Source: Eukaryota sp. GEM-RC1 (taxonomy: Eukaryota). From it: a stretch of DNA of 64,000 bases. Each line of letters opens with the position of its first letter. Within the stretch, counting starts at the first letter, position 1. Below are positions 38,339 to 62,946 of the stretch, in pieces. Position numbers and translations under genes: made by a program. A model generated the notes under the pieces. That model searched no databases, was not told where the DNA came from, and worked only from the letters and a program-made list of their open reading frames with translations. The stretch is from positions 2,852,001-2,916,000 of the forward strand of contig JAUFOQ010000016.1 in NCBI GenBank assembly GCA_040285855.1, in the 5' to 3' direction.

Positions 38339-41300
38339 TGATGCTGTATGGAGTTAGTGGACATACAATGAATGAAATTAAGTTGGTTTATAATCTATGA
38401 TTCTCATACTATGATAATCTACACTACTTCTTCTCCTTCTTCGAACCAGTTCTTCTTCGAGTTCTCTTGGCTATGGGAGTCTTGTTAGGATTAGCTTTTG
38501 AGGATGATCTCTTTCTCTGGTCTATGCAAGGATTATTATTATTTTTCTTAAACGCCATAAATGCCTTAGTGTTTTTAATACTTGAAGTAGCAACTGCAGT
38601 GATATCTCCTCCATACCATAATACAGAACACATTGGACCTTCAGGTGAGTCGAATTGATCTAACACTTCAGTGATGACATGTTCTTCCTTATCACCAGCT
38701 GCAACTTGTTGATGGATGCCATGATCTGATGGGAGGTCAGAATGGTAGAGTTTGCATTGATGTACACTAGCTTGGGATTCAATGCCAGATACAAGGTTCT
38801 TGATTTTCAAGGATGATGATGAAAGGAGCTCGATGACCAGGAATGGGCCAGAGTGTTTGCCATGAAGCTTTGTAGCAGTCTTAGAGGATCTGAGGATCAT
38901 ATCGCCAATTTCAAATGGATTTGATTTATTGGACTTAGGGGTCTCTTTGACGATTGATTGCTACTTGCTGATTCTTGCCTTTCCCGGATTCTCTCGTTTT
39001 TCTTTGAAGGTCTTCGATAAAAGGGATACTTAAATTGGAAGCTTCGAGGGCTCTGAGTATGATACTAGGATCTGCCTTAGGCCCAAAAGAGGACCCAAAC
39101 ATTAGTTCATAAGGGGTGTGTTCAGTGTAACGATTCTTTGTTGCGTTTAGCTGGAGTTGTACGAAGGGAAGGTATTCGGTCCAGTTGTCGAATGTTCCAA
39201 AGTCGATTAGGAAACGTTGAAGATTTCTTAAGACATCGCGATGACGTCTCTCGACTAACCCGTTAGATTGAGAAAAGTGGGGGATGGATGTTGTGTTATC
39301 AATTGCCAGCAGTTGACAGACTGCGTTGAATGTTGCGTTAGCAAATTCAGGACCGTTGTCGCTGTGGATGGAATAGGGGATACCGAATATACCACATACG
39401 TTGAACACGAGTGCATATGCAACTTCTTTAGCGTTCAGTTCATTGATTGGGGCTAATATAGTGAATCTTGTGAAAGAATCTACAAATACTAGGATGTAAC
39501 GGTTACCTTCAGCGTCAGGGGATAATGGACCAATAGTGTCTACATTAACTTTGGCGAATGGTTTATCGGCCCAAAGTGATCCTGAGTGAGGGATTTGATC
39601 CCTTTTGACAGGGGATGTCTTTTGGCATGAGGGACAGCTCTTGATATGATTGACTAGATCGTCTTTCATGTTAGGCCACCAGTAGTCGCTGTCGTTAAGG
39701 TTTTTAACTGATGTTGCTATACTGGGATGACCAGATTGTACTAATCCATGGATGTTGAGCAAGGCGGATTTCCTGAGGGACAAGGGGATCAGGATTTTCT
39801 TGTCGTTGGTTAGATATAACTGTACTCTATCGTAGAATGTTGTGTTGTTGAAGAGGGGTTCGTTTGACTCAATCGCTTTGAATTGTTCGGAACGGATTCT
39901 GCTCAACCAATTGCTGAAGATTGGGAGATCTCTTTGTGCAACTTCACGGAGACTGTTAATTGAGGGGGAGATCGGTGTGATCAATTCTTGTAACGGCTAC
40001 TGGATCATCAGTAGGTTGTGCAGCGGATTTCTGGATGGGAGATTGGTGAGGACATAACCGTGAGAGCATGTCTGCCCAGTGGTTGTCAACTCCAGATGTG
40101 TGTACGATGTCGAATTGGTATTCTGAAAGTACGAAGAGCCATCTTTTAACCATTCTGTTCTTATCGGGACACGAAATGAGGTATGCTAGGTTCTTGTGAT
40201 CTGTGAAGATTGTAAGGTGCCTAGTCTTGAGGAAGTTAGCCAAGCTCGACTCAGTCAGGATGATGAGGATGGCGTAAAGCTCTTTCTGGATGGTCGCCCA
40301 GTTGAGCTGAGAATCGGACAGTATACGGCTGAAGAAACTAATAGGTTGAACCTTTCGTTTTATCAATGGTGTATCTGGTGGACTTGGAGAGATTTCGTTC
40401 CAGATGACACCTCCAACAGCAAGGTCAGAAGCGTCTGCGCTAATGAGGATGTTACTATTGGGGCCAGGAAGGTCGAGTGGTATTTGATGGACTATCAAAT
40501 TTTGATTGAATCAAAAGCTCGTTGGTGTTTGTGTTCCCATTTTACGCCTTTAGGTTTTCCTTTGGTCAGGGCGATAATTGGGGCTAACAATTGAGAGATT
40601 CCTGGTAACCAGTCTCTGATGTAGTTGATTGAACCTACGAGGCTTCTTACATCTTTTACTGTCTTGGGATTTGGAATTTCAAGGACAGCTTTGATTCTGA
40701 CATCATCGATTAATCTGGTTTTGTTGTGGAAGATACTGCCTAATATCTTGATTGGGTGTTTGTGGGTTACAAACTTGCACTTGTGGATGCCGAGGGTTAC
40801 TCTAGCGGATTGTGCTTTATTGAAAACTGCTCGAAGTCGAGTTATAAATTCATCGAACGCTGAAGCTATAACTATGATGTCATCTAGATAGATGAAGACT
40901 CCATCCATTGCGAAGATCTCTGTCATCAGGTTTTGAAAAATTGCTGGTACATTTTTCAGGCCGAATGGAGCTCTGGTGAACTTGATTGTTCTGCCAGGGA
41001 ATGTTAAAGCAGTTTTGTCCATATCTTTTGGAGCAACTTTGAGTTGCCAGAAGGCCTTGGGGAGATCGAGGGTTGCAATGAAGTTTGCTGCTGGTAAGAA
41101 TGTGATCACGTCAGCGATGTTGGGCAGGTCGGATGCTATCGGGACTGTTGAATCGTTAACACCTCCTGTTCCGCTGTAATCTCCAGTCAGACGTGGTTTC
41201 CTATGATCAGGGTATGTGACGAGTACTACAGGGCTTGAGAACTTAGATTGTGGGGATGACACGGCGAAACCTTGTTCGATAAGTTCGTCAAAGATGCCAT

Positions 41301-44300
41301 TGGCGATCTTTAGCTTCTCAGGATTGAAGTAGCGTGGTTTCCTTTTGACGACAGTTGATTCGTCGTGGAAGGGTATTTCCATTGGGGGACAATCTATTCC
41401 ATCAGGATGGGGAGTCGACTGAAATATGATCCTGAATTCTTCTAAGAGGGATGTGAGCTCTTCCTCTAGAAGTTGATTGTCTAGTTCGATTGTGCAACCG
41501 GATTCAACTGGATTGAATGATGTGGAATGATCGGTGTGTCTGGACCTCACTGGTGAGTGTGTGCTCATTAGGTGATCGAATTCCGATTCATCTTTCAAGA
41601 TGGTGTTATGTTCTTTATCTAGTCTAATGACTAGGCTGTCCTCTGTCAACAGCCCTAATTTGTTTAATAAATCGATTCCGATGAGCATTGTTTTATTACC
41701 GGTAACAATAGGGAAGGAGTGATCTATATAAACTAGGTTAGCTGCGCTATTGAGCTGGAACGCAAGAACACCTTTGGCTGTGCCTAAGGACGATGTACGG
41801 GTGCCATTTGCAGTGATGTAGGAGATTGTTTCCTGTGAGGTGTTCATCTTGCAGAGATCGACTAAGTCTTGAGTGATGACGGAGACTTGTGCGCCTGAAT
41901 CTATGGTTCCGGATATTGAAACATCGTTAACAGACATGTTCAGGGCAATGAATTTGTCTTGGTTGTTGCGAGTTATACTCATAATCCTGGCTGTATCGTT
42001 GAGGATTTCGCTGATAGGATTGTTGAGTGTGTGTGAGGTGTAAGAGCTTGGTGTCGAGGTTGTCGACAAAAATTCAAATAATTATCGTTTTTATTACGCT
42101 TTAAATCTACATTACCACTACCGGATCTGCGTTTTCTTTCTTCAAACTTACCAGCGTTTAAAGAGGATACTCTGCAGTTGGGATCGGGGCACATTTCGAC
42201 TGTATGGCCAGGCTCTTTGCAGTACTTACATACTGATTCAGATCCTGTGTCTCTGTGCTTGGGCTTTTGGCGATTCTTACCGGGACCTCTGGGACCTTTG
42301 AATTGTCCACGTTTATGAGATTTTTTTCGGGGGTTCCTATTTCTAACGTCTGAGTCACTGTCAGAGTCGAAGGAGGGACGGAAGTTCTTCAACTTGTTGT
42401 ATCGAGGGACACTCGAGTGATGGAGATAGGGGCACTTGACTCAGTGATTGGGGGAGTGGATGGACGAGTAGTGTCCAGGAATCTAGCATCTGAGATATAT
42501 TGGAATCTAATATTCTGACGCTGGATGTTCTGGCTGCACCAGTTCAAGTACCGGTCTTTCAGGTCCTTGAACACCTCGACTGTGCTGAGTTGAGCAAAGG
42601 AGGCTTTATCTTTGAAGAAGATCTTCGTGTCCGATCGGATGATTGGAATACCGATGTTGTGGGCAAAGTATTTTAATATGTCCCGGGCTTCGAAACAGTA
42701 CAACTGAGTGGTGTTCAGTTCAATCATGGTGGACATGTTTGCCACGATTGTGAAGCGGCGAAGGAAGTCATCCCAACGCTCTTTGTTGGAGCTCCATGAC
42801 TTGTCCCAGTCCATGCGGCATTCGGCAAGGGCGTTGTCTGCAATCTGGGGGGATTCAAATTGGGAGCTGATGATTATTCGTTCCCAGATTGCCCAGTTGC
42901 ATAAGGAGTTGGCGATGGTGCCATCAGATTTCCACGAGCTCAGGATGTGAGGGTCTACATGGAGTTGAATTCCTCTAATGTCGACGTTTAGCAGAAGGTC
43001 TCTGGCTAAATCGAGGCCATGACGGGGTTCGCCATAAGTGGTCTTGTTGATGGATAGTACATCCTCGAAAGGAGTGAACAGTTCATCTGCTGTGGTGGGT
43101 TCGGCAAGTTGTCTCCAGGCCAGTACTTGGTTTTCGAGTTCGAGCAGATGTTGGGATATATCAATGCTCTTACCGCGGGCTCTGGAATACCGGCGCCACT
43201 CTAGAGCGAAATTCAGGCATGAAAACTGGTCGGTTTTCTGCAAGTAAGGCGGTTTGAGCTTGGATTCTCGGCGGGTTTCGTTTTCGAGTTCAGCGAACTT
43301 TGCGTTTTCAGGGGTAGCTACGCCAGTGGCTGCATCCATGAAGGAACTGGGGAATCAGCTCCGAACTCAAACTTGGTATTGGTAAAAGCAGTAGGTACTG
43401 TTATACCAGGGAGTTTGCTCGTATCACTGGGCAAAGTGAAGATTAAGCCACCTTTGGGTTTGGTGGAGTTGGATATTACCTTAGGGGTCGCCATAGGTGA
43501 ATCTAAAGCCTTAGGTTGAGGGGTACTCAACTGCTTCATGACCGTTAACATCTCCATTCTGAGATCATTGTTCTCTTTCAGGAGTTGTTCCACGAGGGGA
43601 TTGGAATTCCCTGTGTCTTGAATTGGGATAGGCAGGGAATCGCTGCTGGGTGAAATGTCGTCTTTTGGGGGAGTCTTGTCTGGAGATGAAACATGGAGGG
43701 ACTGAGAGACAAGTCATCCTCTGAAGCTGACTTATTCTGTTCAGCCTGTTCTTTCCCAAGACGGATGAGTTCGGCGTTGATGTCACCATATCTTTCAATC
43801 AACAGCTTCGTGTGGAGTTCACGATTTTCACGGAGTTCTTTAGGGTTTAAAGCTATCCCTGTTCGATTGAAGTTTTGTCGTTTACATAACTCTTCTTGTT
43901 GGGATCAGGGGTTCTGATATCATCTGGGTCAGATGTTTTTATCCCATTTGGAAGATACGTTACTTTGAGCTTATTCTTCTTAGAAGAAGTCTTCTTCGAA
44001 GGGACACTCTTAGTTTTACGAACAGGAGGGACACTCTTGGGTTTACGAACAGGAGGGACACTCTTGTCGTTGAGTTTGGAAGATTTACGAGCAAGAGGGA
44101 TGCTCTTGTCGTCAGGACTGAGAAGGACATTCTCATCCTGTTTATCCTCGGAGAGAGGAATGATTGAAGGTTTACTTTCTTTTTCAGAAGGGGATACCTC
44201 CTTCCCAAGAGAAGTCTTCAGCATATTGATGCTGGGAAGAGATCCTGGATCTGAGGTGAGTTCCACGTCGGCGTTTTCAGCCAATACGTATTGATGCTGT

Positions 44301-44376
44301 ATGGAGTTAGTGGACATACAATGAATGAAATTAAGTTGGTTTATAATCTATGATTCTCATACTATGATAATCTACA
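38339..44376 (-). mobile_element. Ty3/Gypsy LTR retrotransposon, copy 2 (same insertion, segmentally duplicated)
   Basis: LTRs at 44292-44376 and 38339-38423; TSD CTAG (38335-38338, 44377-44380); flanks are the same as copy 1. Confidence 0.96.
38424..44317 (-). CDS. gag-pol: Gag-Pol polyprotein, copy 2 (several 1-bp homopolymer frameshifts)
   Basis: Fragments nearly identical to copy 1; intact CPSC and in-frame chromodomain-like tail. Confidence 0.88.
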
Positions 44377-44816
44377 CTAGGAACATTCAGCATGATGTAG
44401 TGTAATACTGAATGTGTCATCCACATGTGTACAGCCTTTTACTCAACACTGAAATCCTTTTAAGGACATTGGAAGGACCCCATCAAAAGCAAGTTCCCAA
44501 TTCACGTAGAATAAAGTGATTTTATTACTTGCATTGTATTAAAGTTGATTGTGATACCTAGTTATGATGTATAGTCAATTACAAGAGAAATTTGTTATGC
44601 CAGCTTACAATCTCATTATACAAAGTCAATTCTCAGAAAACACTGTTAGTAATGTTGTTCAAATACAGATAGTTTCTGCTGATGTGCAGAAATGTGTGTG
44701 TGTGTTAACCGGACCCATACGAACCGTAGAGGTTTGTGATTCAGATGAATATAACACTCTCATGTAATTAAACACCTAATCATTACATGTTACATACACC
44801 TTAAATGGTGTAGCCG

Positions 44817-47800
44817 GTGTTGAGCGTATCAAACTTGTCAGAATTGCGGAATGAATTTCAATCTCTTGTTCTTCTCTTGATGATGATATCGTTTCCAATT
44901 TCTCCCCTCAGAACACAGATAGCTTCCGCTTTGTTGAAAGACTTACAGATCGATAATAATTCCCCCCGTGAAATTTTTGGTTGCAAAGATTTCTTCTACG
45001 GCTTTATTCCATCATTTCTACACCGGCTATGTTAATTCATGTTCCGATTTCCTGATTGAGCATCCTGTCGCTCTGCTTAGTGATGACAAAGACGTCAAAG
45101 ATTCTTTTGGAAACGATCAAGATGGTGATGTTCCTTCTGGAATTGATCCTGTAGCAGCTGCTACTACAATTTCTCAACAAATTGTACAGTTCATTGCCCA
45201 ACTGCTTGAACCTGATGTCAAGGCTTCTCATTTGGAGTCTATTTATAGTAGTTTTAAAGAAGAAGAAATGTCTAATGAAATGGAAATTCTTTCCCTCCTT
45301 GATCCCTCTGGAAAACTTCAGAAAGATGTTCTGTTTAATATCAAATCATGGGTCAATCGTCACGTGTGGGATCCAATCATTGCCTGTTTCAAGAATTCGT
45401 CTGGATTATTTAGTTCAATCTTAGTTTCAACGTTCATTGTTGATAGAAGAATTACTTCTGTTCCAGAACTCTCTCCAGACTCTCTATTATCTGACTTTGG
45501 ATCTTACTCCAAGAAGTTGAGCTCAATGGTTGATTGCAGTCATTGCAATCGTACGTCACCGCCACTGTATTTACAAATCTTCCAACTTCTTAACAATGCG
45601 GATGACTTACTTTCAATTCTGAACAAACACTCTACTTTCACACCGGAAGAACTTTCCTCTAAGCTCTATGGTAACTTTGCCGCCTCTTATACTGTTAATA
45701 GCTCTGTCGCTCAGTTTTTCATCAGTATGTTGGATGATCCCAAATCTCTATGGAATTCTGTATTAAAGCCAATGTTTGATGATGGAAATGCTAACATGCG
45801 TCAGTTATTAAGAAATCTTCATGAATGGATGAACAAAAATTGTAACTCTCCTCAACGTGTTGCTGCAGATGTTAAGTCAATCAATCAATTAAAGAGTGCA
45901 ATCAAGGCGATTGACGAGTTGTTGGTCAGTGATGGTGATCAATCTGCATTGATTAATATCATTTCTAAGTGTAACTTCCAAGAAGGTATTTTACGTTTCA
46001 ATCTTGAGACCATTACTGTCAGACTGCAGCTTCCTACTGGAGAAGATAGTACAATTGATATCCCAGAAGAAGAGTTTCATAGAGCTAGAGCTGAAGGACT
46101 TCGTCTTAAAGTAGAATCTATTGATAATAACGAGGAACAAGTTGATCGAAAGTCTGGAGTTGATGATGAAAAAGAGATCAATTTTTAAATATATCTCAAC
46201 TAGTTGATGAAACACTTTTTATTTTGAGACAATTAGTTGATTGTGGTTTTCCCATCAAATCTAATGAGCCTGAACTTATTGTTATGATTGAAGAACATAA
46301 CTCTGGTATTCAACAACAAGTCGAGACTTTACGAGAATTACGTGATACTTGGATGTCTCTCTTGGAACAAGCTCAAAATGGCTGGTTTAGAGGCATGCAT
46401 CCAAAAGAAATTTCAAACTTTCTTTTGAATCGTCACGTGGCTGATATAGTAAGATATTTTGAATTCCCAAAATATTTTGCAAATAATTCAGCTCAATCTG
46501 GAATTGATGCCAGTTATTCTGTCAATGTTAAACTCGAGGAAATATTCAATTCTGCAGCTCCTGTTGTTGAAATTAAAGATCGATCAATCACGTATTTTCA
46601 ATCAGATTCTCTATCAAATCTTTTCACTGATGCTTTGAAAATAGCAGTTCATAGAGAGATTGAATTGAACATTCGAAATGTTTTAATTTGTAATTGGGAA
46701 ACTTCTTTCAGTTCTTTAGTTGCTGTTATGTCTGACTCACTAGTATCTGAACGATTAATTATTGGTTTTGATCAATTGAGATTTTCTGTTCGAGAGAAGT
46801 TCTATACTTATATGAAGGATAAGAACGACGACAATTTTAAAATTTCTGTCGTTGGGTCTGGTACTGATTTCCTTGACAATACTCACTCTGTACTTGGTAC
46901 CCTTCCTTCGGAAGTTGACTTGTCTTCAGTATTAGAAAGCTGTACTGTAGGTGCAATTTACACGTCAGCAGTACCTGGTCAAGGTAAAACTACAAGGTGT
47001 TTAAGAGAATGCGTTCCTGAAGGTTTGATTGAAACTCATACAAAAACATTTAATGTTTCGGGAAAAGTTAATATTTCTGAGTTTATTGAAAAATATCTTC
47101 GTGATGATAAGATTGATTGGACAAATCCTAATATTCATTTAGACATTCGAGAGCCTTTGGATGTTTTAAAAAGAACGTTCACTCGAGAACACTGGACAAC
47201 GTCATCCAATTTGACTTCCCAAGACTTCTACAATACTGCTTACATTTTGTTTTCATTGTCCTTTCTCTCAGGTCTTCGGCACAATGGTTCTATTTTTAGA
47301 CTTGAGGAAAAGATGTATATTGAGTTTGCTTCATATTCCAGAGCCAGTTTAACTCCATTTAATTGGTATAATTCTCTTATTGATTCTTTATATCCAAACA
47401 AAGATGATCTTGTCCATGAACTTACTTTTGATTTTGGCCATGTTAAATTCACTTCTGAAGAAATGAAAGCACACGTCGCTACAATTTCTCGTTTTCTTTC
47501 CACTCTTCTCAATTCTTCTGCTTCGTTAGAACCTCTTTTTACTAATACTTTTGCAGATCTACCTCCTCCTCATCAAAGTCAATGGTCATTTAGACTACTT
47601 ACAGATATTGTTTCTTTACTGGGATCACAATTGTACTATTTTGGTCAAGCTGTCGCCTTTTCTCCTGAGATTATGACTCTAAATGGGTACAGTGACAGTC
47701 AAACTGATGACATTCGCCGTGGTGGTATTGATCTAATATTTGGCTTTGCCCGTCAGACCGTTCTCATGTCAGTACCCACGATCAGTGCTCCTGATAGAGA

Positions 47801-48575
47801 TGAAGTTGTGGTTAATTGGAATGATATGAATCATGTTATGTTCATGTTAACTCGTGATTCTCCTTCAATTACAGTTCCAAGAGGAAGTACCGTTCCAAAT
47901 GCTCTCAAAACCTATATCGATATGAACACTTCTTCCAGGGATTCAGTCGAAATACCAGCCACTGATGAAGGAAAAATTTCAATAATTCGTTCGTTTACTT
48001 TTGACAGCTCTGTGCCACCTAAATTATGGAAAGAACGTTTCGGAAGCTACGCCCTTACTGGTGATGCTTATCTTAAACAATCCTTAATTGCTCTCAGATT
48101 TTCTGCTAATTTGCCTACCATTCTTCGAGGTGCTAGTGGTGTTGGAAAAACTCATTTACTGGAATGTTTAAGTTTTATTTTATTTTGGAATGAATCTGCT
48201 GAAAATCCTAATATATGGGAAGAATTGTTTGTTAACGTTACTGTAAATGCTGGTACAGAACTTCGCGAAGTAGAAGATACTATTAAAAGGGTCAACAATC
48301 TTGCCATACTACTTCCTCCTGAAAGTCCTCTCTTTCCGATTCTATTTTTAGATGAATGTAATGCTTCTGATTTCTTAGGACTCATGTCTTGTTTAATTAC
48401 CAACAGAAAACTTGGAACTCTAACTTTACATCCAAAAGTCCGTTTAGTAGCTGCTATCAATCCATATCAAAAAGGTGATGGTGATAAGCTTTTGTACAAT
48501 GTTCACCCAGAACCTTCATGTTTAATCCCTCTCATGATGGACTTTGGTAAGTTGTCTGAAAAGGATGAAACCTAA
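44817..48575 (+). pseudogene. RNF213: Truncated RNF213/mysterin-like dynein-type AAA+ ATPase (region through the second AAA module)
   Basis: SAVPGQGKT; YALTGDAYLK..IALRFSANLPTILRGASGVGKT; LFLDECN; VAAINPY; LLYNVHPEPSCLIPLMMDFGKLS (RNF213 signature VYRVHxLPxSLxxxVWDFGQL). The 46188/46224 break is one A-run indel. Homologue, not a demonstrated orthologue; the start is uncertain. Confidence 0.85.
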
Positions 48576-49274
48576 ATAGACTTGATTGATTATGACTTGC
48601 TATCATATATTCTTTACTAATAAACAAAATTGTATTCAATGTGTATAATTTATACATACAATTTAGTTAATTAACAGTGTAGGTTAGCAATACGTTTGAT
48701 TCTGACCTTTTGTTCGTTCTAATGTACGGCTTTTTTTGGTTCTTTAGGTTTAATCGTATTATGTTTGCGCATTACAAAACCTCTCCTAAGTACAACAGTT
48801 ACATTTGTTCTAAGTTGTAAAAGGACAATGACTGGTTTGATGTGGAATACTTGCCTTTATAAATTTTCAGAATTAGTTTTTGAAAAACGTACACGTAGTT
48901 TTGTGCTGATTTGCACGACATCTCTGAATGTTTATGTAGTAATCATCGCTGTCCAAGGTTTAGATATGTAAATAATAGCCCCAAATTCATTCAATTTCGT
49001 TCCTTCATAATATTGTCACAGATGTTACATTTGAATGATTGAATCTCATGGATTTTGTCATTTAGAACAGTATTCGGTGATTCAGTCTTGATTCAATTAA
49101 TAATTCGGATCGAGTTGACTTACATCTTCTCTTTATTAATTCCAGTCAAATAATTCTTGATGTTATAACATGAGATTTATGTGCTCAAAATTGTAGTAAC
49201 ATCACAAATGTAATCACTTGATTTTCAATAAAATGAAAAAAAGTAGGATGATAACTCAGAATACTCTTTTTCAG

Positions 49275-50085
49275 TCAAAGCAAAAACGTACTTACGACTA
49301 ACGGAATCAAATGCATTGTAGAATGGACAATAGAAGTTAAGTTATCATCATGAGAATTAAACAACAAAGATGATATCTTAATTCCAGATTGGAATGGAGA
49401 TAAAAAGCGACCTGATGTATCAACCACTCGATTAAAAACAATTGAAGCAAAGAAACGGGAGATTGATTGTCCAAAAGCAATTGGACGGATTCCATCAGAT
49501 TTAATTCCCCTGACCGGGTTTGACGAAACCAATGAGATGAGCATCAGTCCAGAAATTACCTTCAAACATACACTATGTTGAAAGTAGATCACAAGATCAT
49601 TTGTATCTCCAAAGACAAATTTTGGACTTTGTGGATATTGATGATTAGATGTAGGTACACTCTACTCAAGTGACTTTAGTGGACCTGGTAATAAAAACGG
49701 ATTTATCTGCGAAGAAAAACACACAACAAGAAAACAACAAATAAATAAAGATTATAAAAAACAGAGTATCAAACGAATTACCCAATTCCCAAAAATAGTG
49801 TACCACCAAACAACTTGGCCAAAATGGAATCAACAAATCTAAAAAAGACTAAAAAATCGAAACATCAATTTTACTCATCCAGTACGCGATGTTAAACTTC
49901 TTATCAAATTCTGAACACAAATTTTCAAGCAAATTTAAAAACTTCCTTAGTAGAAGAATCGAAAAAAGTGTTGGTTCACTTATAGAAACATCGAGGACAG
50001 AGTTATTCTCAATAAGACTATCAAGTCTACTATTACGTGTAGACGTAGTACTAATAGATGCTGTGTGTTGATGGATGAGGACCAC
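49275..50085 (-). mobile_element. CRE-like non-LTR fragments (RT domain piece plus a probable C-terminal piece)
   Basis: DGIRPIAFGQSISRFFAS...LSPFQSGIK (RT subdomains 1-2); KFNIAYWMSKI resembles the C-terminus of the relic at 31930. Confidence 0.65.
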
Positions 50086-50170
50086 ATGTCGTTAGTAAAA
50101 ATGATCCTTTCTTCGCTTTATACTATAGTACTTCAATCATTAGTAACTCATTCCTATTCTTGATCTATCA

Positions 50171-53100
50171 ATGGATTGTGTTGTTTGTTATGACTCCATT
50201 ATTGATTTGTAGTGAAGGACACACCGCATGTGCTCAATGCTCAGCTGCATTGGACATCTGTCCTGTCTGCCGTAGTCAATCTCTCAGCGTAACAAAACCT
50301 AATTTTGCTCTACAAGATCTCATCCGATCTTCTCGTAATGGCGATCTTTGTCCTCAAATTCCCTCCGATCACATACTTCTCGGAACTAAAATAGCTGAAG
50401 GTGGTTTTGCTGTCGTCTACGCTGCTGAATGGTCCGATCTCCCTGTCGCTGTAAAGATGGTTGAACTTACAGATGTAGGAAAACTCCAACTCCAAAAAGA
50501 AATGAATCTGCTCTACAACCTGAATCATCCCTCTATTATACGTGTCTATGGCATCTCCTTCTTCAATGATTCCATTGGTATCGTGATGGAAAGAGCTTCT
50601 TCTTCCCTCCCCCTTCCCAAGTTCTCTTTCTCCAGTAACACTTAGATACGCTAAAGAGCTTTGCCAGGGTGTGAAGTTTCTCCACCTGAAGTCTGTTGTA
50701 CATGGTGACTTGGAAACCAGGTAATATACTTCTAGTGGATGGTCACGTTAAAGTTGCTGATTTTGGTACCTCCAAAACTGTTTCTACTACCACTACCATG
50801 GTAACAAAGACACATGCCGTAACTCCGAAATACGCTGCTTCTGAACAATTTGATGATTCTCCTGGTCCTTTTAGTGACATTTATTCACTTGGATTAGTTA
50901 TGTATGAAATTTTGTCTGGAAAAGAAGCTTTTGAAGGGTATTCGGTTAATCAAATTATTGGTGCTAAATTTCGAGACAAACCATTACATTTTGATTCTTC
51001 AGTACCTGATTGTTTAAAGGATTTAATTTCAAAATGTTTGAATTCTGATCCCATGATACGACCAACAATCAGTGAAATTACTGAGATTATTAAAAATGTG
51101 AATGTTTCTGATTGTGATGATAATGAAGCTGTTGTAGCTCCAAATCTGCAATTATCAGATGAAATATCCTCACTGAAAAGTCAAGTTACTGACTTAAAAA
51201 AAGAAAATGTTGATCTTTTACAATCGAATGATCAAAATATTGTGAATTTAAACTCACAGTTTACCAACAAAGAGAATTCTCTTAATGAAACTATCTCTCT
51301 TTTGACAAATCAAAACAATGTTTTAAAGGAGAAAGTCCATGATGCCGAGAATCAACTTACAAACTATAAGTCCTGTATACAATCTACTGTAAAGTCTTTG
51401 AGTGTACCATCAAATACTCCAGTCTTTGACCTTCAATCAACGACAGCTCTGGGTTTCCAGCTCATTAATTCTCTTTCTCCTACACCTCAAGCCAAAGAAG
51501 CTGTGTTATCTCATCTTTCTTTAGAGATTGAGGATAGTTCTTTAGGTAGAATATGTACTTCTTGGTTAAAGTTAGCATATATTCTTTATTGTCCTGAAGA
51601 ACTTGCTTCTGAGAATTTAATTACTAGTAAGCAAGGTGTTTTAGACACTATTAAATTCTTCTTGAAAGATCCAACACCTCATCGCTTACGTGTCATTGGA
51701 GCTCTATGTGATCATTTTGATCCTGAGTTGTTGTTACAGTCTAATCTTTTTGAGCTTGTTAGTGATCCTTCTGTTATTGGTGATGTTGCTCCATTAATTT
51801 TTCAAAAATTGTTTGAAAAATTGAAATCTGATTCTGCCCATACACAGTTATTACCATTCATTGAAGCAACATCACCAATTCTTGATCTGATTTTCTTAAT
51901 TTATATTTATTCTGAATCTTTTCCATGGTTTTTGGCTTCTTTGTCACAGTCTTTTGTTTCATCTCTACCTAAACTTGGATTACAATTACCAACTCTGTCT
52001 GAAGTACTGGCTAAGTTAGGTAAAGCCTCACAACTAACTCTAATTACTCTTTATAGTAAGTTATTTTCTATTTTGGTTGCAGATCTTATTGACCAAAACC
52101 AACCAATTCCTATCGAAGTGTTGATATTCTCACTTGACCAATCAGTACGAACAAAATCACATTTGATTGGAGTAAAGACTTTCCTTATTCGTTTACTTTT
52201 ATCACGTGGAACTGAGGGTGAAGCAATGGAAGCTCTTTCTTGTTTAATCAAGGATTCAGATGGAACTACCAGTCAAAAACAGGAGTTACTTGCCCCATTG
52301 AACTTGAATGATGACGATTTTAATGGTTTAGCAAATGATACTGACTATAAGAATAATCCTGCAATCATTGAAGAAGTCCAAAGACTTCAAAGCGGAGCTA
52401 TTGACCTATCTAAAATCACTGGGCATAAGGTTTCTGCTATTTTAATTTCTAAGAATATGAATATACCAGAATCAAATTTTAAACACATTTTCAATGTTTT
52501 TGATAATTCCCTTGCCTGTTTACTGCCAGTTGGAGAAATTTTAAATTCTGATTCTTGTCAGGCATTTACCACTGCGTCTATTGAAGCTGCTTATATTCCT
52601 TTCAATTTTCCAAATAGTTGTTTTTCAAGAATTGATTTAAATATGAATAAGAGTTTCCTACACATCTATTACTGTTTAACTTGTGGTTATTCTGCTGTTG
52701 TTAGTAATTGTGGAAGTTCAGGAGTTCACGCCTTTGGTAGAGGTTCTGATGTTTGGTTAGGGTCAAGTGAACATAAGTGTCCAAAATGTTCTGCTGTCAA
52801 TTGGTCAACATGTAATTCTTCATGCGAAGTTCCTTTCAAACACTTTTCATCCAATCCTCAATGGCAACCTGGACTACAACCTGGTTGTTACGATGTATTT
52901 GTTATTATACATTTAGAACCTTGTATGAAGGGTTTATTCCGCTATTCAAATCGAAGATCTTGGTTACTTGGATCAAGTATCTTTTTGTACATGGTCTTAG
53001 CTCGTGCTTGTGTTACTAATAGTATTGCAGACCAGTATGCTAGAATGTATGACGTTGAACATGGATTGGCTCAACTTCGTGATACATTAATTGAATGTTT

Positions 53101-53890
53101 AGATGTTTTGGCCATTGTTCTGCGTGTTACTAGACCTCAAGTTTCTTTAATCATTGCACACGTAATTCGAAAAATTTCTCATAAATTTCCAAATTTTGTA
53201 TGTACAACAATTGAGCAAAAGCGACAAACCGAAGCTCGTATCATGGGTATTCTTGATTCAATTGAACTTGATCCACTTCCCAAGTCTGATTTGACTGCGT
53301 TTACTTTGAGCTCTGGAATTAAAGGAGTTTCAATAGAGGAATTGGGTTGTGATGTTGCTGCGTTGTCTTCTTTGGTTGCATCGTCACCAATTGTTTACGA
53401 AATTCCTGATAAGTCGTCACCATTTTTAAATAATGTTGATATTTCAAAATCAAACAGTTTTATGAGTGTTGCCGAACATCTCCCTAAATTTTTAAAACTG
53501 GTGAAATTTGTTCGTGGAAAGACTGTTTCGATGTTCAAACACAAAGCTATTGTTTGTGAATCCAAATCAATCTTGACTGATCGTCACAGTAGTAAACTTT
53601 TGACGATGCTTGTAATAGTTATAACTTAATTGTGACGAATTTGCAGGAACAAATGGATAAAGAAGAATTAACTGTAGGGTGTCAAATGTTACCTGTACCA
53701 ACAGAACTTTCTGATTCTTCTTGTCTTGGATTATTCACTCTTGACGATTCTGATGATGCTATGCCTATTCGAACTCTAATTGAAGAGGAATTTGTCAATA
53801 CTCATAATACTCTTGTTGGAACTTATTCATTGGGATCGATTGATCTCTTTTCAATCAACTCTGATTCCTTTGTTCAAATCAAGTGTGACA
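50171..53890 (+). pseudogene. Type A chimera, 5' part (RING - kinase - coiled coil - RNF213-like module), broken by the inversion
   Basis: 977-aa ORF running from kinase to RZ-like finger with no frameshift, so the fusion is directly visible. Has a 23-bp deletion in the RING relative to the 62946 copy. Confidence 0.88.
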
Positions 53891-55944
53891 TAAATGATGA
53901 TAAGTTTGGGTGACTCGGATTCATTTTCAATTTTTCAAATAATTTTTCAAATATTAAAGGAGTCACGTCACCAATAACAGAAGGATCACTAACAATCTCA
54001 AAAAGATTAGACTGTAACAACAACTCAGGATCAAAATGATCACAAAGAGCTCCAATGACACGTAAGCGATTAGGTGTTGGATCTGACAAGAAGAATTTAA
54101 AAGCGTCTAAAACACATTGCTCGCTAGTAATTAAATTCTCAGAAGCAAGTTCTTCAGGACAATCATGAACAAATGCCAACTTTAACCAAGAAGTACATAT
54201 TCTGCCTAAAGAACTATCCTCAATCTCTAAAGAAAGATGAGATAACACAGCTTCTTTAGCTTCAGGTGTAGGAGTAAGAGAATTAATGAGCTGGAAACCC
54301 AGAGCTGTCGTTGATTGATCCCCATGGATTGATTGGTTGAGTGATTGTAGATGAGCGATTACCCGTGATTGGTGATAGAGTTGTTTGTTTGTTAAGAAAA
54401 TGTAAAGCTCAGAAAAGAGATCAACGATTGAGGAACAAGCAGAAGCATTTTGAACGAAAGAATCGACAAAGAATACCGATATCTCGAAATATTCAAATAT
54501 TGGTCGAACAATTGAGGTGATATCATTTTCTTCAACTTTGCAGGTATAATTATGAAGCATAACATCGTGATCTGACATATCTTCAATCAACTCCAAAAAG
54601 AGATCAAGCTCAGAATTGTTATCACGATGATATTCAATTAAAGCACAAATAAAGTAAAGGAATGGTAGTTCTGTGAAAGTTAAAATTCCAAATGAAGTTC
54701 TTGTAGAATTCCACTGTGGCAACTTAGACGAAGATAAAATCCAAGAAACGTATTCAAGGTAGGATTTAATCGACATAAAACCGGTATCAAAAGGAATCAT
54801 CAGATTCCAATCAATTAACACGGAGAAAACTTCTTTCAAGTTGGAAAACACGTGATCATTAACGATGGTGAATGAACTAAACTTTGTAAGTTTTCTTTCT
54901 AAATCACGAACTGTCTCAATCAAACAATTGTTGTGGTTGATCAAAAGGGTACTACTATCATTATCCCCAATCAAAAATGATTGATCATCACAATCAGAAA
55001 CATTCACACTTTTAATAATCTCAGTAATTTCGTTGATTGTTGGTCGTAACATGGGATCAGAATTGAAACATTTTGAAATTAAATCCTTTAAACAATCAGG
55101 TACTGAAGAATCAAAAGGTAATGAATCGTTGATATCAGGACTCTGACTCGCCACTTGGCCTTCAAAAGCTTCTTGTCCAAACAAAATTTGATACATAATT
55201 AACCCAAGTGAATAAATGTCACATTGAGGTCCATAATGTGTATTTAATTCATCTGAAACACCAGTTTTAGAAAACACGGCAGGTTTTCCAGTTTTCAAAG
55301 AAGTTGTAGAAACAGTTTTGGAGGTACCAAAATCAGCAACTTTAACGTGACCATCCACTAGAAGAATATTGCATGGTTTCAAGTCACCATGAACAACAGA
55401 CTTTAGGTGGAGAAACTTGACACCCTGGCAAAGCTCTTTAGCGTATCTAAGTGTTACTGATGACAGAGAACTTGGGAAGGGGGAGGGAAGAAGAAGCTCT
55501 TTCCATCACGATACCAATAGAATCATTGAAGAAGGAGATGCCATAGACACGTATAATAGAAGGATGATTCAAGTTGTAGAGCAGATTCATTTCTTTTTGG
55601 AGTTCGAGTTTCCCTTTATCTGTAAGGGCAACCATCTTGACAGCGACAGGGAGATCGGACCATTCGGCTGCAAAGACGACAGCAAAATCATCTTCTGCAA
55701 TTTTAGCTCCGAGAAGTATGTGATCGGGAGAAATTTGAGGGCAAAGATCGCCTTTATTGGAAGCAATGACCAGATCGAGTATACAAGAGTTAGGCTTCTT
55801 CTCTCTGAGACATTCGATACGACAGAAGGGACAGACGTCTAGAGAAGCAGAGCATTCAGTACAAGCAGAGTGTCCTTCGCCACAGACCAACAGAGGAAGA
55901 CGAGAAGAAAGATTAAATGACTTGCAGCAGCCAAAGCAGTGCAT
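53891..55944 (-). pseudogene. Type B chimera, 5' part, broken by the inversion
   Basis: RING (MHCFGCC...), kinase with AEDDF loop, linker; ends ...PNLSSF at the junction. Confidence 0.88.
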
Positions 55945-56599
55945 CCAAAGTGATAGGGTTTTGTTTTGGAAATCAAAATTGAATTTCTATTTGTCAAAAC
56001 TAACATTCAAAACTTATTATTCACGAACAGCTTTTCTCCAGTTAAGAGTGTCACAATTCATTGTAAAATGTGTCTATTGATGATTTCTTAGTCTGTTTGG
56101 AACTCGATACAAGTATTTCTGAAATATATGAGATTGTAAATATAAATTCAATTCTGGCCAAGCTTTTTGGTGGTAACTACTAGTGCTTGTCGGACTTGGA
56201 TAGTGCGCTTGATAATTTCCTGTACGTGCTTTGTTAAGTGCATTCTAGTATCGGTATCCAAATTGAGGTAACACAACGAAATGAACTGACTCTACACGAT
56301 ATGTCAATATTTGACTGTATTGATGGAACTCCCTGTTATTATATACTAGTATATATATATATATCTACAGAATTTTGTTTTCGAGTTTTGTAATCGATAT
56401 CCTTCAAGTACTTCTCTTTGTCAAATTACTTACAGTTTATATCTCATTCATCTCCGTTGCGATATTGGAGGTTTTTCTCCCGAGTGATGCTCACTTTGTT
56501 TTCCTACTGATATCACAGTATTTCCATGTCGAAACATTTTGTCTTTAAAATTTGCTTTAAAGATATTCGTAAATCATTTATTAAATTATTGTGAGTGTA

Positions 56600-57400
56600 A
56601 ATTTTACTGTTCGGTTAAGGAAAAAACCCAGTTTCCCTAATTTGTTAATTGATTTTAATGAGGGTGCTGATGTGGCATTAATTAATCAAATTCCACAAGG
56701 GTGTTGTTTATTTTTATATTTTACCTTATAGATTTTACTTATCTCCGTCTCATAAACATATGTCATTTATTTTCTCTGATACTAGTACCCCATTTGACGG
56801 TATAGTCAACAAGGGTATGGTCTACTATTAAACGATCATCAATGGACCACTACCATGCGACTTCGTTGCTGTTTATGACCATACAATTTGCCAAACGATC
56901 TTTTATGTAGTTGTGGTAAACAATTAGCATGTACTCATTTTTTAAGTTGTAATCGCTACATAACTTATCAGACATGTATGCATGAATGATACTGTAACAG
57001 ACCAAATACATGCTATGTGTAAGTTCTGGAAAATTGAATAATTTGTAGAACCACTTCTAAACTCTTTAGATTTAAATTATTGTAATATTGTAATGGCGAA
57101 ATAAAGAACCAATTTTTGGGTAAACGGAGAGCAGATGTTGTTGTCCCTTCTTCTGCAGACAAATTGTATGTTGTTGATGTGGTGTCTGTGGATGCTTGTA
57201 AGAAGACATCTTTAAAGAATGCTTACTCTAAAACCTCCCCTTTGGACATTTATGAACAAGCCAAACTTGATAAGTACAAAAAATCATTAATGGCTCTAAA
57301 ACTTGTAAAACGTGTTAAGTACGAATTATACCCTTTTGGTCTATCCAGCTTCGGAAAAACAATTTTCCTAGTCATCTCCAAAGCTTTACTAGCTCTGAAT
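56600..57400 (+). mobile_element. Decayed RLE-type non-LTR relic (copy of 22880..23650)
   Basis: KRRADVVVPS...VVDVVSVD...EQAKLDKY...YPFG. Confidence 0.72.
56702..56811. mobile_element. 110-bp solo LTR-like insertion
   Basis: TGTTG...CAACA termini; 4-bp TSD AGGG (56698-56701, 56812-56815); absent from the paralogous site near 22968. Confidence 0.8.
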
Positions 57401-57562
57401 ATATCGGTTGTAAGATTTGGTGATGACAAATGTTGTTTTATTGATAACAATTTTGGTTATATCACTTTTATAAATTACGTCATAAACAACTTCTCGATTG
57501 TTTATACAATGTATAAACATGTACATATGATATGATCTTTGGATAAAGCTTGATAAATTAAC

Positions 57563-58155
57563 CAGGGGTTGAAAAATATATGTTTATTGTCCACCAAAAA
57601 TATTTATTGACACTCTGTGAGGTCGAACAACATGGTATTGTTATTGTAAACAATATATATATATTTATGGACAATAGATTGCAATATTGGAAAATACAAA
57701 CAACAGTTTTTTCTACGAGTTGTAAATCCTGCGAAGTGTTTTCTGATTTCACAAAGCATGATTGAAGCGCAAAAACAGTTGTTTTTGTAAGGTATAAGGA
57801 TCCAAAGCAGGTCCATGACAACATAAAGTGGGGTTTGTGTGACTGATGAGCCTCTCTCCACTTCCCCTACTGGGTGGGTGATGGAGAAGAGGTCATTGTC
57901 TACTGAATTGATGGTGCTTGAAACAATAAGTTGACACTTGAAGGCGAATGTCGAAGTCACTACATAGTCTTGTTTAGATTCCTTCCTCTTCAGGGAATGT
58001 CGATACTATTACACAATGTATTTTCCTACAAATATTCTATAAAACACTGCTGAATCGATTAATTTTGTCTAACATTACCCAACAATATATTGTACAACAT
58101 TGTTATTGTACTTATTGCAATATATTGCAATATCAATATATTTTTTCCAATCCAG
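57563..58155. mobile_element. MITE family 2, second copy (right end degenerate)
   Basis: Left TSD and TIR as at 23813; right end reads ttccaatccag-aagttcac. Confidence 0.78.
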
Positions 58156-58518
58156 AAGTTCACTGATGTGCTTTTGCTTATGTTTCGTATTTAATATCAT
58201 CAAATTGTTTAAACATTTTCATTTCAACATCAGGTATTTTAAATCCAATTGGTAACATTTTGTTTCTATTTAAAAAGATATACAATTGTAAGAGGAAGTT
58301 TAAAGAGGAATCTTATACTTGGGATTATTCACCACTTCGAGTTTATAAAAACATTGAGTTTACTTATTCGCCATCATTAACATTGTTACCAATGAAATGA
58401 GACGGAATGTAATAGTGTTCTAATCACTAATTATTTCAATTCATAGTCAAAAGATTTGTGTGTCCACATGTGCGTTGAACATCAGTTCAATAGAACAAGC
58501 ACAAAATCATTTTTGAGT

Positions 58519-61500
58519 CTACAAAGTCAATCTCTCCAATCCCCAAAAAGTATCAGAAGCTTTCAATTGAGATTCCTCCAAGAACTCAAAATCTTCGCTG
58601 AAACAACAAACTTCGTAGTCTTGCGAATCCATTGGATGAATTCCAACTCTCAAAACAAACTTCTTTAATAAACTAATAAATTCTCTAATGCGAGACTTTC
58701 TTTTAAGTTTAAGTAAAGATTGTACCTTACTAACAGAAAGTTTGGTTTTAAACTGATCCTGAACCAATTCTTCAAGGAGCTGGAATGGGAAATGTAGTTC
58801 TACCGAATTTAATATTGTTAAAATCTGCCCAATAGATTCATTTTCAAAAAGAAATCCAATATTTTGACAAAAGTCATCCAGTTTTCTCTGTTTCAGGAAT
58901 GCCTTTAAGCTCATAGACCTGTCATTTGGAAGTTCTGTAGCGATAGTTCTAGTGACAATAATAATTTCATTATAAAGAGGCAGGTAATCATCAACAATAA
59001 TAGAAGGTGGACAATCAACATTATCATCGACAGTAAACCCTTCTTTTAAGAGGAAATCTTCTAATTCGTACAAGTCTTTGGATTTGGAAAGTAGAAACTG
59101 TGGTAATTCTATTGGTTCAATTTTGTGCTTAATCAATCCAGAAAGGATGTAACCGTCATAAACGTGATCTACAACACGTAAACGGCAAGTGAAAGGATCA
59201 AGGGTGATGCCGCGACTGTCACACTTGATTTGAACAAAGGAATCAGAGTTGATTGAAAAGAGATCAATCGATCCCAATGAATAAGTTCCAACAAGAGTAT
59301 TATGAGTGTTAACAAATTCCTCTTCAATTAGAGTTCGAATAGGCATAGCATCCTCACAATCGTCAAGAGTAAATAATCCAAGACAAGAAGAATCAGAAAG
59401 TTCTGTTGGTACAGGTACCATTTGACACCCTACAGTTAATTCTTCTTTATCCATTTGTTCCTGCAAATTCGTCACAATTAAGTTATAACTATTACAAGCA
59501 TCGTCAAAAAGTTTTCTGCTTTGACGATCAGCCAAGATTGATTTGGATTCACATACAATAGCTTTGTGTTTGAACATCGAAACAGTCTTTCCACGAACAA
59601 ATTTCACCAGTTTTAAAAATTCAGGAAAATGTTCGGCAACACTCATAAAACTGTTTGCTTTTGAAATATCAACATTATTTAAAAATGGTGACGACTTATC
59701 AGGAATTTCGTTAACAATTGGTGACGATCCAACCAATGATGACAACGCAGCAACATCACTGCGCAATTCCTCTATTGAAACTCCTTTAATTCCAGAGCTC
59801 AAAGTAAACGCAGTCACATCAGACTTGGGAAGTGGATCAAGTTCAATTGAATCAAGAATAGCCATGAGACGAGCTTCGGTTTGTCGTTTTTGCTCAATTG
59901 TTACACACACAAAATTTGGAAATTTATGAGAAATTTTTCGAATTACGTGAGCAAGGATTAAAGAAACTTGAGGTCTAGTAACACGCAGAACAATGGCCAA
60001 AAGATCTAAACATTCAATTAATGTATCACGAAGTTGAGCCAATCCATGTTCAACGTCATACATTCTAGCATACTGGTCTGCAATACCATTAGTAACACAA
60101 GCACGAGCTAAGACCATGTACAAAAAGATACTCGATCCAAGTAACCAAGATCTTCGATTTGAATAGCGGAATAAACCCTTCAAACAACGTTCTAAAGTAA
60201 TAAATACAACGTAACGACCAGGCTGTAGTCCAGGTTGCCATTGAGGATTGGAGCAGAAGTGTTTGAAAGGAACTTCGGATGAAGAATTACATGTTGACCA
60301 ATTGACAGCAGAGCATTTTGGACACTTATGTTCACTTGACCCTAACCAAACATCAGAACCTCTACCAAAGGCGTGAACTCCTGAACTTCCACAATTACTA
60401 ACAACAGCAGAATAACCACAAGTTAAACAGTAATAGATGTGTAGGAAACTCCTATTCATATTTAAATCAATTCTTGAAAAACAACTATTTGGAAAATTGA
60501 AAGGAATATAAGCAGCTTCAATAGACGAAGTGGTAAATGCCTGGCAAGAATCAAAATTTCTCCAAGTGGGAGTAAACAGGAAAGTGAATTATCAAAGACA
60601 TTGAAAATGTGTTTAAAATTTGATTCTGGTATATTCATATTCTTAGATATTATAATAGCAGAAACCTTATGCCCAGTGATTTCAGATAGGTCAATAGCTC
60701 CGCTTTGAAGTCTTTGGACTTCTTCAATGATTGCAGGATTATTCTTATAGTCAGTATCATTTGATAAACCATTAAAATCGTCATCATTCAAGTTCAATGG
60801 GGCAAGTAACTCCTGTTTTTGACTGGTAGTTCCATCTGAATCCTTGATTAATTCAGCAAGAGCTTCCATTGCTTCACCCTCAGTTCCACGTGATAAAAGT
60901 AAACGAATAAGGAAAGTCTTTGTTCCAATCAAATGTGATTGTGTTCGTACTGATTGGTCAAGTGAGAAGATCAAAACTTCAATAGGAAGTGGTTGGTTTT
61001 TGTCAACAAGATCTGTAACCAAAATAGAAAATAACTTACTATAAAGAGTAATTAGAGTTAGTTGTGAGGCTTTACGTAACTTAACTAGAACTTCAGAAAG
61101 ACTTGGTAATTTGAATCCAAGTTTAGGCAGATATGAAACAAAAGACTGTGACAAAGAAGCCAAAAACCATGGAAAAGATTCAGAATAAATATAAATTAAG
61201 AAAATCAGATCAAGAATTGGTGATGTTGCTTCAATGAATGGTAATAGCTGTGTATGGGCAGAATCAGATTTCAATTTTTGAAACAATTTTTGAAATATTA
61301 ATGGAGCAACATCACCAATAACAGAAGGATCACTAACAAGCTCAAAAAGATTAGACTGTAACAACAACTCAGGATCAAAATGATCACAAAGAGCTCCAAT
61401 GACACGTAAGCGATGAGGTGTTGGATCTGACAAGAACAATTTAATAGTGTCTAAAACATCTTGTTCACTAGTAATTAAATTCTCAGAAGCAAGTTCTTCA

Positions 61501-62946
61501 GGACAATAAAGAATATATGCTAACTTTAACCAAGAAGTACATATTCTACCTAAAGAACTATCCTCAATCTCTAAAGAAAGATGAGATAACACAGCTTCTT
61601 TGGCTTGAGGTGTAGGAGAAAGAGAATTAATGAGCTGGAAACCCAGAGCTGTCGTTGATTGATCCCCATGGATTGGTGTATCTGATGGTACACTCAAGGA
61701 CTTTACAGTAGATTGTATACAGGACTTATAGTTTGTAAGTTGATTCTCGGCATCATGGACTTTCTCCTTTAAAACATTGTTTTGATTTGTCAAAAGAGAG
61801 ATAGTTTCATTAAGAGAATTTTCTTTGTTGGTAAACTGTGAGTTTAAATTCACAATATTTTGATCATTCGATTGTAAAAGATCAACATTTTCTTTTTTTA
61901 AGTCAGTAACTTGACTTTTCAGTGAGGATATTTCATCTGATAATTGCAGATTTGGAGCTACAATAGCTTCATTATAATCACAATCAGAAACATTCACATT
62001 TTTAACAATCTCAGTAATTTCATTGATTGTGGGTCGTAACATGGGATCAGAATTCAAACATTTTGAAATTAAATCCTTTAAACAATCAGGCATTGAAGAA
62101 TCAAAATATAATGGTTTGTCTCGAAATTTCGCACCAATAATTTGATTAACCGAATACCCTTCAAAAGCTTCTTTTCCAGACAAAATTTCATACATAACTA
62201 ATCCAAGTGAATAAATGTCACTAAAAGGACCAGGAGGATCATCAAATTGTTCAGAAGCAGCGTATTTCGGAGTTACGGCATGTGTCTTTGTTACCATGGT
62301 AGTGGTAGTAGAAACAGTTTTGGAGGTACCAAAATCAGCAACTTTAACGTGACCATCAACTAGAAGTATATTACCTGGTTTCAAGTCACCATGTACAACA
62401 GACTTCAGGTGGAGAAACTTCACACCCTGGCAAAGCTCTTTAACGTATCTAAGTGTTACTGATGAAAGAGAACTTGGGAAGGGGGAGGGAAGAAGAAGCT
62501 CTTTCCATCACGATACCAATGGAATCATTGAAGAAGGAGATGCCATAGACACGTATAATAGAAGGATGATTCAGGTTGTAGAGCAGATTCATTTCCTTTT
62601 GGAGTTGGAGTTTTCCTACATCTGTAAGTTCAACCATCTTGACAGCGACAGGGAGATCGGACCATTCAGCAGCGTAGACGACACCAAAACCACCTTCAGC
62701 TATTTTAGTTCCGAGAAGTATGTGATCGGAGGGAATTTGAGGGCAAAGGTCTCCATTACGAGAAGCTCGGATGAGATCTTGTAGAGCAAAATTAGGTTTT
62801 GTCTCGCTGAGAGATTTACTGCGGCAGACAGGACAGATGTCCAATGCAGCTGAGCATTGAGCACATGCGGTGTGTCCTTCACTACAAATCAATAATGGAA
62901 GACGAGAAGATAGATTGAAAGAGTCATAACAAACAACACAATCCAT
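58519..62946 (-). CDS. Type A chimera, complete (~1470 aa consensus): RING - kinase - coiled coil - RNF213-like E3 module with RZ-like finger and C-terminal domain
   Basis: Three collinear ORFs (165, 653, 646 aa) separated by small indels; AEGGF, VAVK, HGDLKPGN, DFG, YAASE; YYCLTCGY...SNCG...CPKC; NTHN; LKKFVLRV. Confidence 0.87.

Follow-up and report, generated by a model that had tools for sequence, protein, structure and literature searches.

A truncated RNF213-like gene in front of a RING-kinase fusion with an RNF213-like tail in a tandem array of Eukaryota sp. GEM-RC1

In mouse and human RNF213 (mysterin), AAA modules and an E3 ligase region lie on the same chain. According to an excerpt of PMC7311170, only AAA3 and AAA4 of the mouse protein are catalytic, and each arginine finger comes from the next module, that of AAA4 serving the AAA3 site. 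Excerpts of PMC12075652 state that ATP binding at AAA3/4 activates the E3, that the C-terminal domain (CTD) docks the E2 and, as in an excerpt of 10.1101/2021.05.10.443411, that ubiquitin is taken up by a free cysteine in the RZ finger; the way in which ATP bound to the AAA ring turns on the ligase is called unclear in PMC12075652. In the current study, a stretch of 64,000 nucleotides (the window; contig JAUFOQ010000016.1, positions 2,852,001 to 2,916,000) of AT-rich eukaryotic DNA was analyzed from Eukaryota sp. GEM-RC1, a free-living metamonad according to an excerpt of PMC11316075. Two genes on its plus strand are the main subject: a truncated RNF213-like AAA gene (44977-48575) and, behind a spacer, a fusion gene with an RNF213-like tail (type A, 50171-53890). 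We consider it somewhat better than an even chance that the AAA gene is a broken RNF213-like copy, that type A is a RING-kinase head on an E3 tail, and that a later deletion or insertion in the tandem array would have cut the AAA gene in front of the already existing fusion.

Database proteins, referred to here by P numbers, match the RNF213 structures (6tax, 6tay, 7oik, 8s24, 9g08 and 9jwg) by sequence in AAA3-AAA6 (P0023, E 1.7e-40; profile, E 4.8e-81) and by predicted fold in the E3 region, and P0023, P0016 and P0020 have the same order of parts. Unlike RNF213, these relatives are about 3,000-4,000 amino acids long, have no internal RING and space the Cys and His residues of the finger differently, and the genes of the window consist of fragments and of fusions headed by a kinase or BTB domain. 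The full-length skoliomonad proteins P0023, P0019, P0016 and P0020, labelled hypothetical in NCBI, are direct homologues of both halves. Unlike the window genes, each of them has the complete set of AAA modules on one chain and lacks a kinase.

Birth-and-death arrays of immune genes in which domains have been integrated or swapped, for instance plant NLR genes and kinase fusions, likewise combine tandem copies, swapped heads, truncated or dead copies and retroelement debris. The likeness is one of organization; what the copies share here, in a protist that is anaerobic and free-living, is an E3 module of the RNF213 type.

The truncated AAA gene and its full-length relatives

The AAA gene lies in two frames, 44938-46185 and 46170-48572 (+). 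Its 5' part (44977-46176, tblastn), the stalk/linker region, starts at the point at which P0002 also starts and at which the BTB head of P0001 is attached, and lacks about 600 N-terminal residues of P0016 and P0020. An upstream exon at 44597-44731 occurs in database gene models only (P0026, P0027). The two frames are separated by a 1-nucleotide shift in an A-run (46169-46173), through which the P0026 copy reads; the shift is likely to be an assembly error or specific to this copy. A Cys/His-rich insert in P0001 (about 704-810) and P0025 (9-116) sits at the same site, which is also the model start of P0023, and the site may be a junction hotspot.

The second frame (46170-48572) encodes AAA1, AAA2, whose P-loop GQGKT lies at 46977, and the AAA3 large domain; AAA1 and AAA2 are named from their position. 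In AAA3, Walker A (GASGVGKT, 48129) and Walker B (LFLDE, 48345) align with mouse AAA3, which the end of the gene matches (6tay 1830-2027, E 5.9e-10). The frame ends in DFGKLSEKDET followed by TAA at 48573-48575, as the first-pass annotation had noted. Its expectation that the family continues past the stop also held, as P0001, P0002 and P0023 run on with EEEYV.KIA; the isoleucine read after the TAA is not homologous. Similarity to the relatives ends at 48569 (tblastn), and the missing middles of P0023, P0001 and P0002 had no tblastn match better than E 0.21 across the window. Because of these two results the gene must be regarded as broken off (breakpoint and stop, 48569-48575, just before the small or lid domain of AAA3) and not as halted by a point stop, and readthrough or splicing into the missing part is excluded within the window. 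A non-standard reading of TAA was considered and dropped, as nothing homologous lies beyond it.

The chain therefore ends after the AAA3 large domain and does not hold six AAA modules. Both the AAA3 lid (AAA_lid_7 is P0001 1638-1734, the break P0001 1617) and AAA4 with its arginine finger are missing from it, so that the piece probably has no working ATP site and would not hydrolyse ATP.

The same end was found when the TAA was followed into other copies, P0026 (..KDET) and P0025 (..KDEN, with N for T) stopping at the same residue, which argues against a sequencing error. The 90% cluster of the AAA piece has four members, namely the window frame, the 5' part of the same gene, P0026 and P0025. 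Because the three truncated copies end alike and form one clade (98% support; 95.7-97.9% identity), the sequence comparison indicates that the break is real and arose once.

Nearest proteins of the window genes are NCBI entries under Eukaryota sp. GEM-RC1. Among them, P0023 (GEMRC1_003134, reached by cluster look-up) is a single chain of 2,919 amino acids that covers both halves and the gap between them, with 87.6% identity to the AAA piece over residues 1-790 and 72-78% to the type A tail over residues 1865-2919. It is the best full-length match to both halves, the outcome that the proposal of an ancestral full-length gene had called for. A search of 1.84 billion representatives with the tail gave 10 matches, including full-length P0016 (E 4.2e-55), P0019 and P0020, which are labelled from three skoliomonad strains and have matches to the AAA piece as well; two of them, P0016 and P0020, each belonging to a further species, likewise cover both halves and the gap. 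In trees, both halves fall inside the P0023 subfamily (support 96-100%), which supports descent of both pieces from full-length RNF213-like genes of one young subfamily.

A search for longer AAA proteins retained 3 of 4,683 candidates, of which P0001 (89%) and P0002 (63%) continue past the stop, and P0023, P0016 and P0001 match RNF213 through the later AAA modules. The corresponding search with the C-terminal 689 amino acids retained none of 3,485 candidates, a weak negative since P0023 exists. The first 150 or so residues of P0016 and P0020 resemble, by eye, what we take to be the pattern of the RNF213 CBM20 domain; Pfam gave no such match at E 1.

The type A fusion, its E3 module and related fusions

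Type A, on the same strand, does carry the RNF213-like C-terminus ascribed to it in the first-pass annotation, its tail being collinear with P0023 from residue ~1865. From the ATG at 50171 it encodes a C3HC4 RING (50171-50275), a protein kinase domain (Pfam; VAVK, HGD and DFG motifs; 50370-51090), a coiled-coil-like head end with the head-tail junction (51100-51436, junction at about 51400-51436) and the E3 tail (51437-53890; P0023 ~1865-2703). An inversion cuts the tail at 53890, and the displaced C-terminal end (P0023 ~2699-2919) lies at 24790-25485 (-). A second, uncut copy occupies 58522-62946 (-), and reaches the end of P0023 (74% over 219 residues). Its RING (62946-62800, -) is whole and matches Sina_RING (Pfam, E 3.5e-7). 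None of four long relatives checked has a CxxC between AAA6 and the finger, hence an internal RING is absent from them and the RING of the fusions comes from the head.

Several lesions had been overlooked earlier: a 23-nucleotide deletion near 50197 breaks the RING, 1-nucleotide shifts occur near 50610, 50713 and 53598, and the gene is cut at 53890. This copy is itself likely to be dead. The uncut copy has a 7-nucleotide deletion near 60552 and a shift near 62490. An apparent 1-nucleotide shift at the kinase hinge is present in 4 of 6 window heads and in P0030, and is missing from P0013 and the copy at 11631. At 50713 an extra G follows the HGDL codons, and P0005, although it belongs to another type of fusion, has these shifted residues at its start, which suggests either a lesion in common or an error of systematic kind. 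Little weight can be put on single-base shifts, because 65 of the 75 indels between the long inverted arms of the window are single-base and 50 of the 75 lie in homopolymers of at least 4.

Single-sequence searches of the PDB with the type A tail gave no RNF213 match. Two models of the tail (mean predicted local distance difference test score, pLDDT, 48.8 and 53.3) both had RNF213 first in Foldseek. The first aligned with human RNF213 4380-4707 at Z 11.9 (root mean square deviation, rmsd, 3.3 over 154 residues; the next of 115 chains had 4.4), a Z that helical models can reach by chance according to the warning of the tool. For the second, C-terminal model the five best Foldseek rows were RNF213 (E 1.5e-3 to 8.4e-2), and its structural alignment (VIA) reached only to 4896 (Z 7.1, rmsd 18.6). 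The fold score, together with the chain of sequence matches through P0023 and P0016, identifies the tail as a predicted RNF213-like E3 module.

The tail contains a cysteine finger (52673-52790, +) made of a CxxC, the conserved Cys of SNCG (52709) and a second CxxC. In the family, conserved in three species, the Cys stands in a G-x-C-G-like word and the second CxxC follows 18-26 residues later. As in the RZ finger of RNF213 and ZNFX1, the Cys lies in such a word between two metal-binding pairs, at the matching place of the E3, and by place and Cys the finger appears RZ-like. The spacing is unlike that of the animal finger, since the first pair is CxxC and not C-x3-H, and the second follows after 18-26 residues and not 9-12. 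Ligand positions of human RZ were taken from an excerpt of PMC11549300, and the His residues of P0023 at -7 and +21 from the Cys have the offsets of human H4509 and H4537 given there. The type A finger did not show CHCC ligands with RNF213 spacing (-11, -7, +9 and +12 from the nucleophile); it has CxxC at -12/-9, Tyr at -7, CxxC at +23/+26 and His at +6 and +21, and most of the modelled finger has a pLDDT under 50. A Pfam search gave no RZ-type match for the finger, and the Atlas no usable match for its region. A Cys was present at the nucleophile place in 6 of 8 proteins compared, including type A and all three full-length ones; it is lost in the fusions P0005, P0007 and type C. His-Gly occurs at +5 to +9 in P0023, P0006, P0016, P0020, P0032 and P0005.

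Three other fusion types are present. Type B, a RING-kinase fusion, lies at 17466-22218 (-) with a tail from P0023 ~1700, and a second head (55944-53890, -) and a second tail (25486-28190, +) occur separately. Type C, also a RING-kinase fusion (33574-35676, +; second copy 12064-9971, -), has a tail from P0023 ~2170 without the conserved finger Cys and without the CTD. Type D (28944-31030, +; second copy 16714-14620, -) is a BTB fusion with a tail from P0023 ~2170, again without the CTD. Fusion proteins without interruption are found in the database, among them P0013 (923 amino acids; RING, kinase and type B tail) and P0032 (670 amino acids; BTB and a tail with finger, a relative of type D), and head-tail junctions are spanned by P0013, P0032, P0005, P0007 and P0004. 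In the type B kinases (55944-55450, -, and 22218-21865, -) acidic residues replace the glycine loop (AEDDFAVV), and they may be pseudokinases.

For change after fusion, omega was 0.53 (0.36-0.80) in the type A pair and 0.27 (0.15-0.50) in the type B pair. In neutral simulations the median was 0.67-0.80; the value for B fell below the 1% tail and that for A close to the 5% tail. A retroelement control gave 0.49 (0.2-1.53) from only 19 changes and carried little information. Types A and B were thus probably kept by selection.

One split or repeated shuffling

The first-pass annotation had proposed that the chimeras were founded when a full-length gene lost its middle to a RING-kinase cassette. 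This part of its reading was not supported. The kinase heads finish at about the same coiled-coil end, but their tails are joined at P0023 ~1700 (B), ~1865 (A) and ~2170 (C), and a BTB head occurs both on the AAA half (P0001) and on tails (type D, P0032). The type B tail holds about 165 residues that are absent from type A, and since no deletion in A could give rise to B, type A was not the founder of type B. Identity to P0023 over its residues 2171-2520 is 83.8-87.6% for types B, C and D and 77.7-77.9% for type A; in substitutions per site, the B, C and D tails lie 0.18-0.23 from P0023 and the A tail 0.29. Because these other tails are nearer to P0023, its being the best match to both halves does not single out type A. 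It would seem that RNF213-like pieces acquired heads with a coiled-coil end on several occasions. As a side observation, residues 1-34 of P0006 are identical to P0001 2181-2214, and these paralogues are 78% identical over their 242-residue overlap, a sign of patchwise exchange.

The relative age of the break was estimated from nonsense changes. The two type A copies share their junction and differ by dS 0.061. Over 3,594 coding bases the AAA piece carries not a single nonsense change. Had it been dead since the two type A copies separated, 4.2 would be expected under neutrality at d = 0.03 (P about 0.016; 0.06 at d = 0.02). The break must therefore be younger than type A, or the piece must have been kept open by selection or conversion; the former is more likely, and the AAA piece is probably a young remnant.

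That a single event exchanged the middle of one full-length gene for the spacer and a RING-kinase cassette is an unlikely alternative. Such an event would have made the AAA piece and type A together, types B to D apart, with the AAA piece kept open by selection or conversion. Order and strand are as in P0023, which is the best full-length match of both halves, and the subfamily trees are unresolved with signs of conversion; yet the A tail is the most distant from P0023 among the tails while the AAA piece is close, the stop count favours the younger break, and order weighs little because co-orientation is common to all family genes. We find it improbable that the AAA piece is a working protein, a stalk with an AAA1-2-3L half ring that serves as a decoy, a sensor or a partner in trans of full-length genes or fusions. 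The open frames in three copies and the intact Walker A and B would suit such a role, as would a break near the natural boundary between AAA1/2/3 and AAA4/5/6 of the mouse ring and the holding of ATP by mouse AAA2 with residues of AAA3 (both from an excerpt of PMC7311170). The copies are, however, altered at positions where the three longer paralogues all agree (P0025, for example, has L for W and D for G), and no start codon lies near the homologous 5' end without a predicted intron. Action in trans with type A, which had been raised earlier, is contradicted by the gap between the halves: P0023 790-1864, about 1,075 residues from the AAA3 lid to the early E3, is in neither, so that the pair cannot rebuild the ATPase ring.

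The chance that the AAA frame is spliced or read through into type A, giving one AAA-RING-kinase-E3 chain, is very small. A donor-like GTAAGT stands at 48547, 22 bases before the break, but it encodes the conserved GKL and the same word occurs 21 times on the plus strand of the window; more stops follow the TAA in all frames, and none of the three copies is carried past the stop in its database gene model. Equally hard to credit is an artefact of long-read assembly as the source of the break or of the fusions. The share of arm indels in homopolymers (50 of 75) would fit such errors, and an excerpt of PMC11316075 reports that the genomes of the named relatives were assembled from R9.4 nanopore data and corrected with Illumina data. 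Against this, three copies that differ by 2-4% have the same break, and the junctions recur in diverged copies and in the uninterrupted P0013, P0032, P0005 and P0007.

The preferred account, a break in front of an older fusion within a family of repeatedly joined modules, has several points against it. Both window copies of type A have frameshifts outside homopolymers (23 and 7 nucleotides), the shift near 50610 is common to all three type A heads, and no uninterrupted type A gene was found; the low omega could come from exchange with working genes. Both tail models are of low confidence, with Foldseek E-values short of 0.001, and at +8 from the finger Cys type A has Phe in place of the His of its relatives. 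Within the subfamily the trees are poorly resolved (support 36-71; C-terminal nodes 41-49), and are compatible with descent of the AAA piece and the A tail from the same parent. Dating by nonsense changes presupposes that the copies evolved neutrally and without gene conversion, yet 8 of 37 variable sites among the AAA copies show both states in longer paralogues. Finally, only one instance of the adjacency of AAA piece and type A is visible, and it may belong to the repeated unit.

The tandem array and the fusion family

Self-comparison of the window paired 1-20175 with 45619-25485 (inverted, 98.6%), 49094-53890 with 64000-59217 (inverted, 94.9%), and found 20175-25485 repeated as 53890-59217. 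The pattern is that expected of a tandem unit, about 33.7 kb long, in which 28.4 kb (25485-53890) are inverted. The inversion ends are clean and reciprocal, share a single base, and lie inside genes, one type A and one type B gene being cut; the last residues of database protein P0009 are those made by the inversion junction. After the inversion is undone, the order is AAA piece, type A, type B, BTB type D, type C, long terminal repeat (LTR)-type retroelement and the next AAA piece, and all family genes lie on one strand, as the earlier claim of co-orientation had it. At the left edge of the window, the 5' end of the AAA gene of the neighbouring unit (1-682, -) matches P0026 in 226 of 227 residues, and P0026 is likely to be its continuation off the window.

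The spacer between the AAA piece and type A (48576-50170) is unrelated to RNF213 (tblastn and self-comparison), and over 49094-50160 it differs from the copy in the next unit at 49 of 1,040 aligned sites (4.7%). The first-pass annotation described CRE-like debris here, of which little was supported: frame 49278-49661 (-) is a possible non-LTR reverse-transcriptase remnant, for which an Atlas row at 0.89 with RVT_1 on 16% of its members serves as a lead only. Its reverse-transcriptase and endonuclease motifs were presumed to be CRE-like. Frames at 13162-13716 (-), 31923-32612 (+), 57086-57532 (+) and 37335-37757 (+) have CCHC and RxD..D-like motifs that we take to be those of CRE-type retrotransposon endonucleases, without a Pfam match; these frames sit upstream of kinase heads in varying orientation. 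A Pfam search of 49278-49661, 13162-13716, 31923-32321 and 57086-57532 gave no match, and Pfam on 38 of the 58 listed intergenic frames of the window returned nothing usable. An LTR-type retroelement with protease, reverse transcriptase, RNase H and integrase in one frame of 1,807 codons lies at 1536-6956 (+). A second copy with homopolymer shifts (38427-44347, -) is flanked by a 91-bp direct repeat (38336-38426 and 44289-44379) that overlaps the frame start.

Searches of the openly available literature listed no paper on RNF213 in Skoliomonas or metamonads and none on kinase fusions. The split gene matters less than the fusion family, being most likely a broken copy in a shuffling array; more interest attaches to the RNF213 E3 fusions under kinase or BTB heads and to the full-length proteins of metamonads. 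Types A and B, which keep the core, the finger and a putative CTD, are predicted RNF213-type cysteine ligases that would take ubiquitin on the finger cysteine and dock the E2 on the CTD, with the kinase or RING head steering the ligase in place of the AAA ring; the fusions are thus predicted to be ligases without the usual ATP switch.

Possible, although well short of even, is a modular RNF213 family in which an E3 module with a rearranged RZ-type finger was repeatedly freed from the AAA ring and placed under RING-kinase or BTB heads, with the finger-dead and the CTD-less fusions and the AAA half ring as decoys or regulators. If so, these would be kinase-controlled cysteine ligases that again have a RING and an RZ-type finger on one chain, an arrangement that animal RNF213 has by a different route. 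Natural ring-less fusions with E3 core, finger and CTD would test whether the module can act alone and what the ring controls. The full-length metamonad proteins, in which the internal RING is absent and the finger has another spacing, would extend the RZ class to organisms other than animals.

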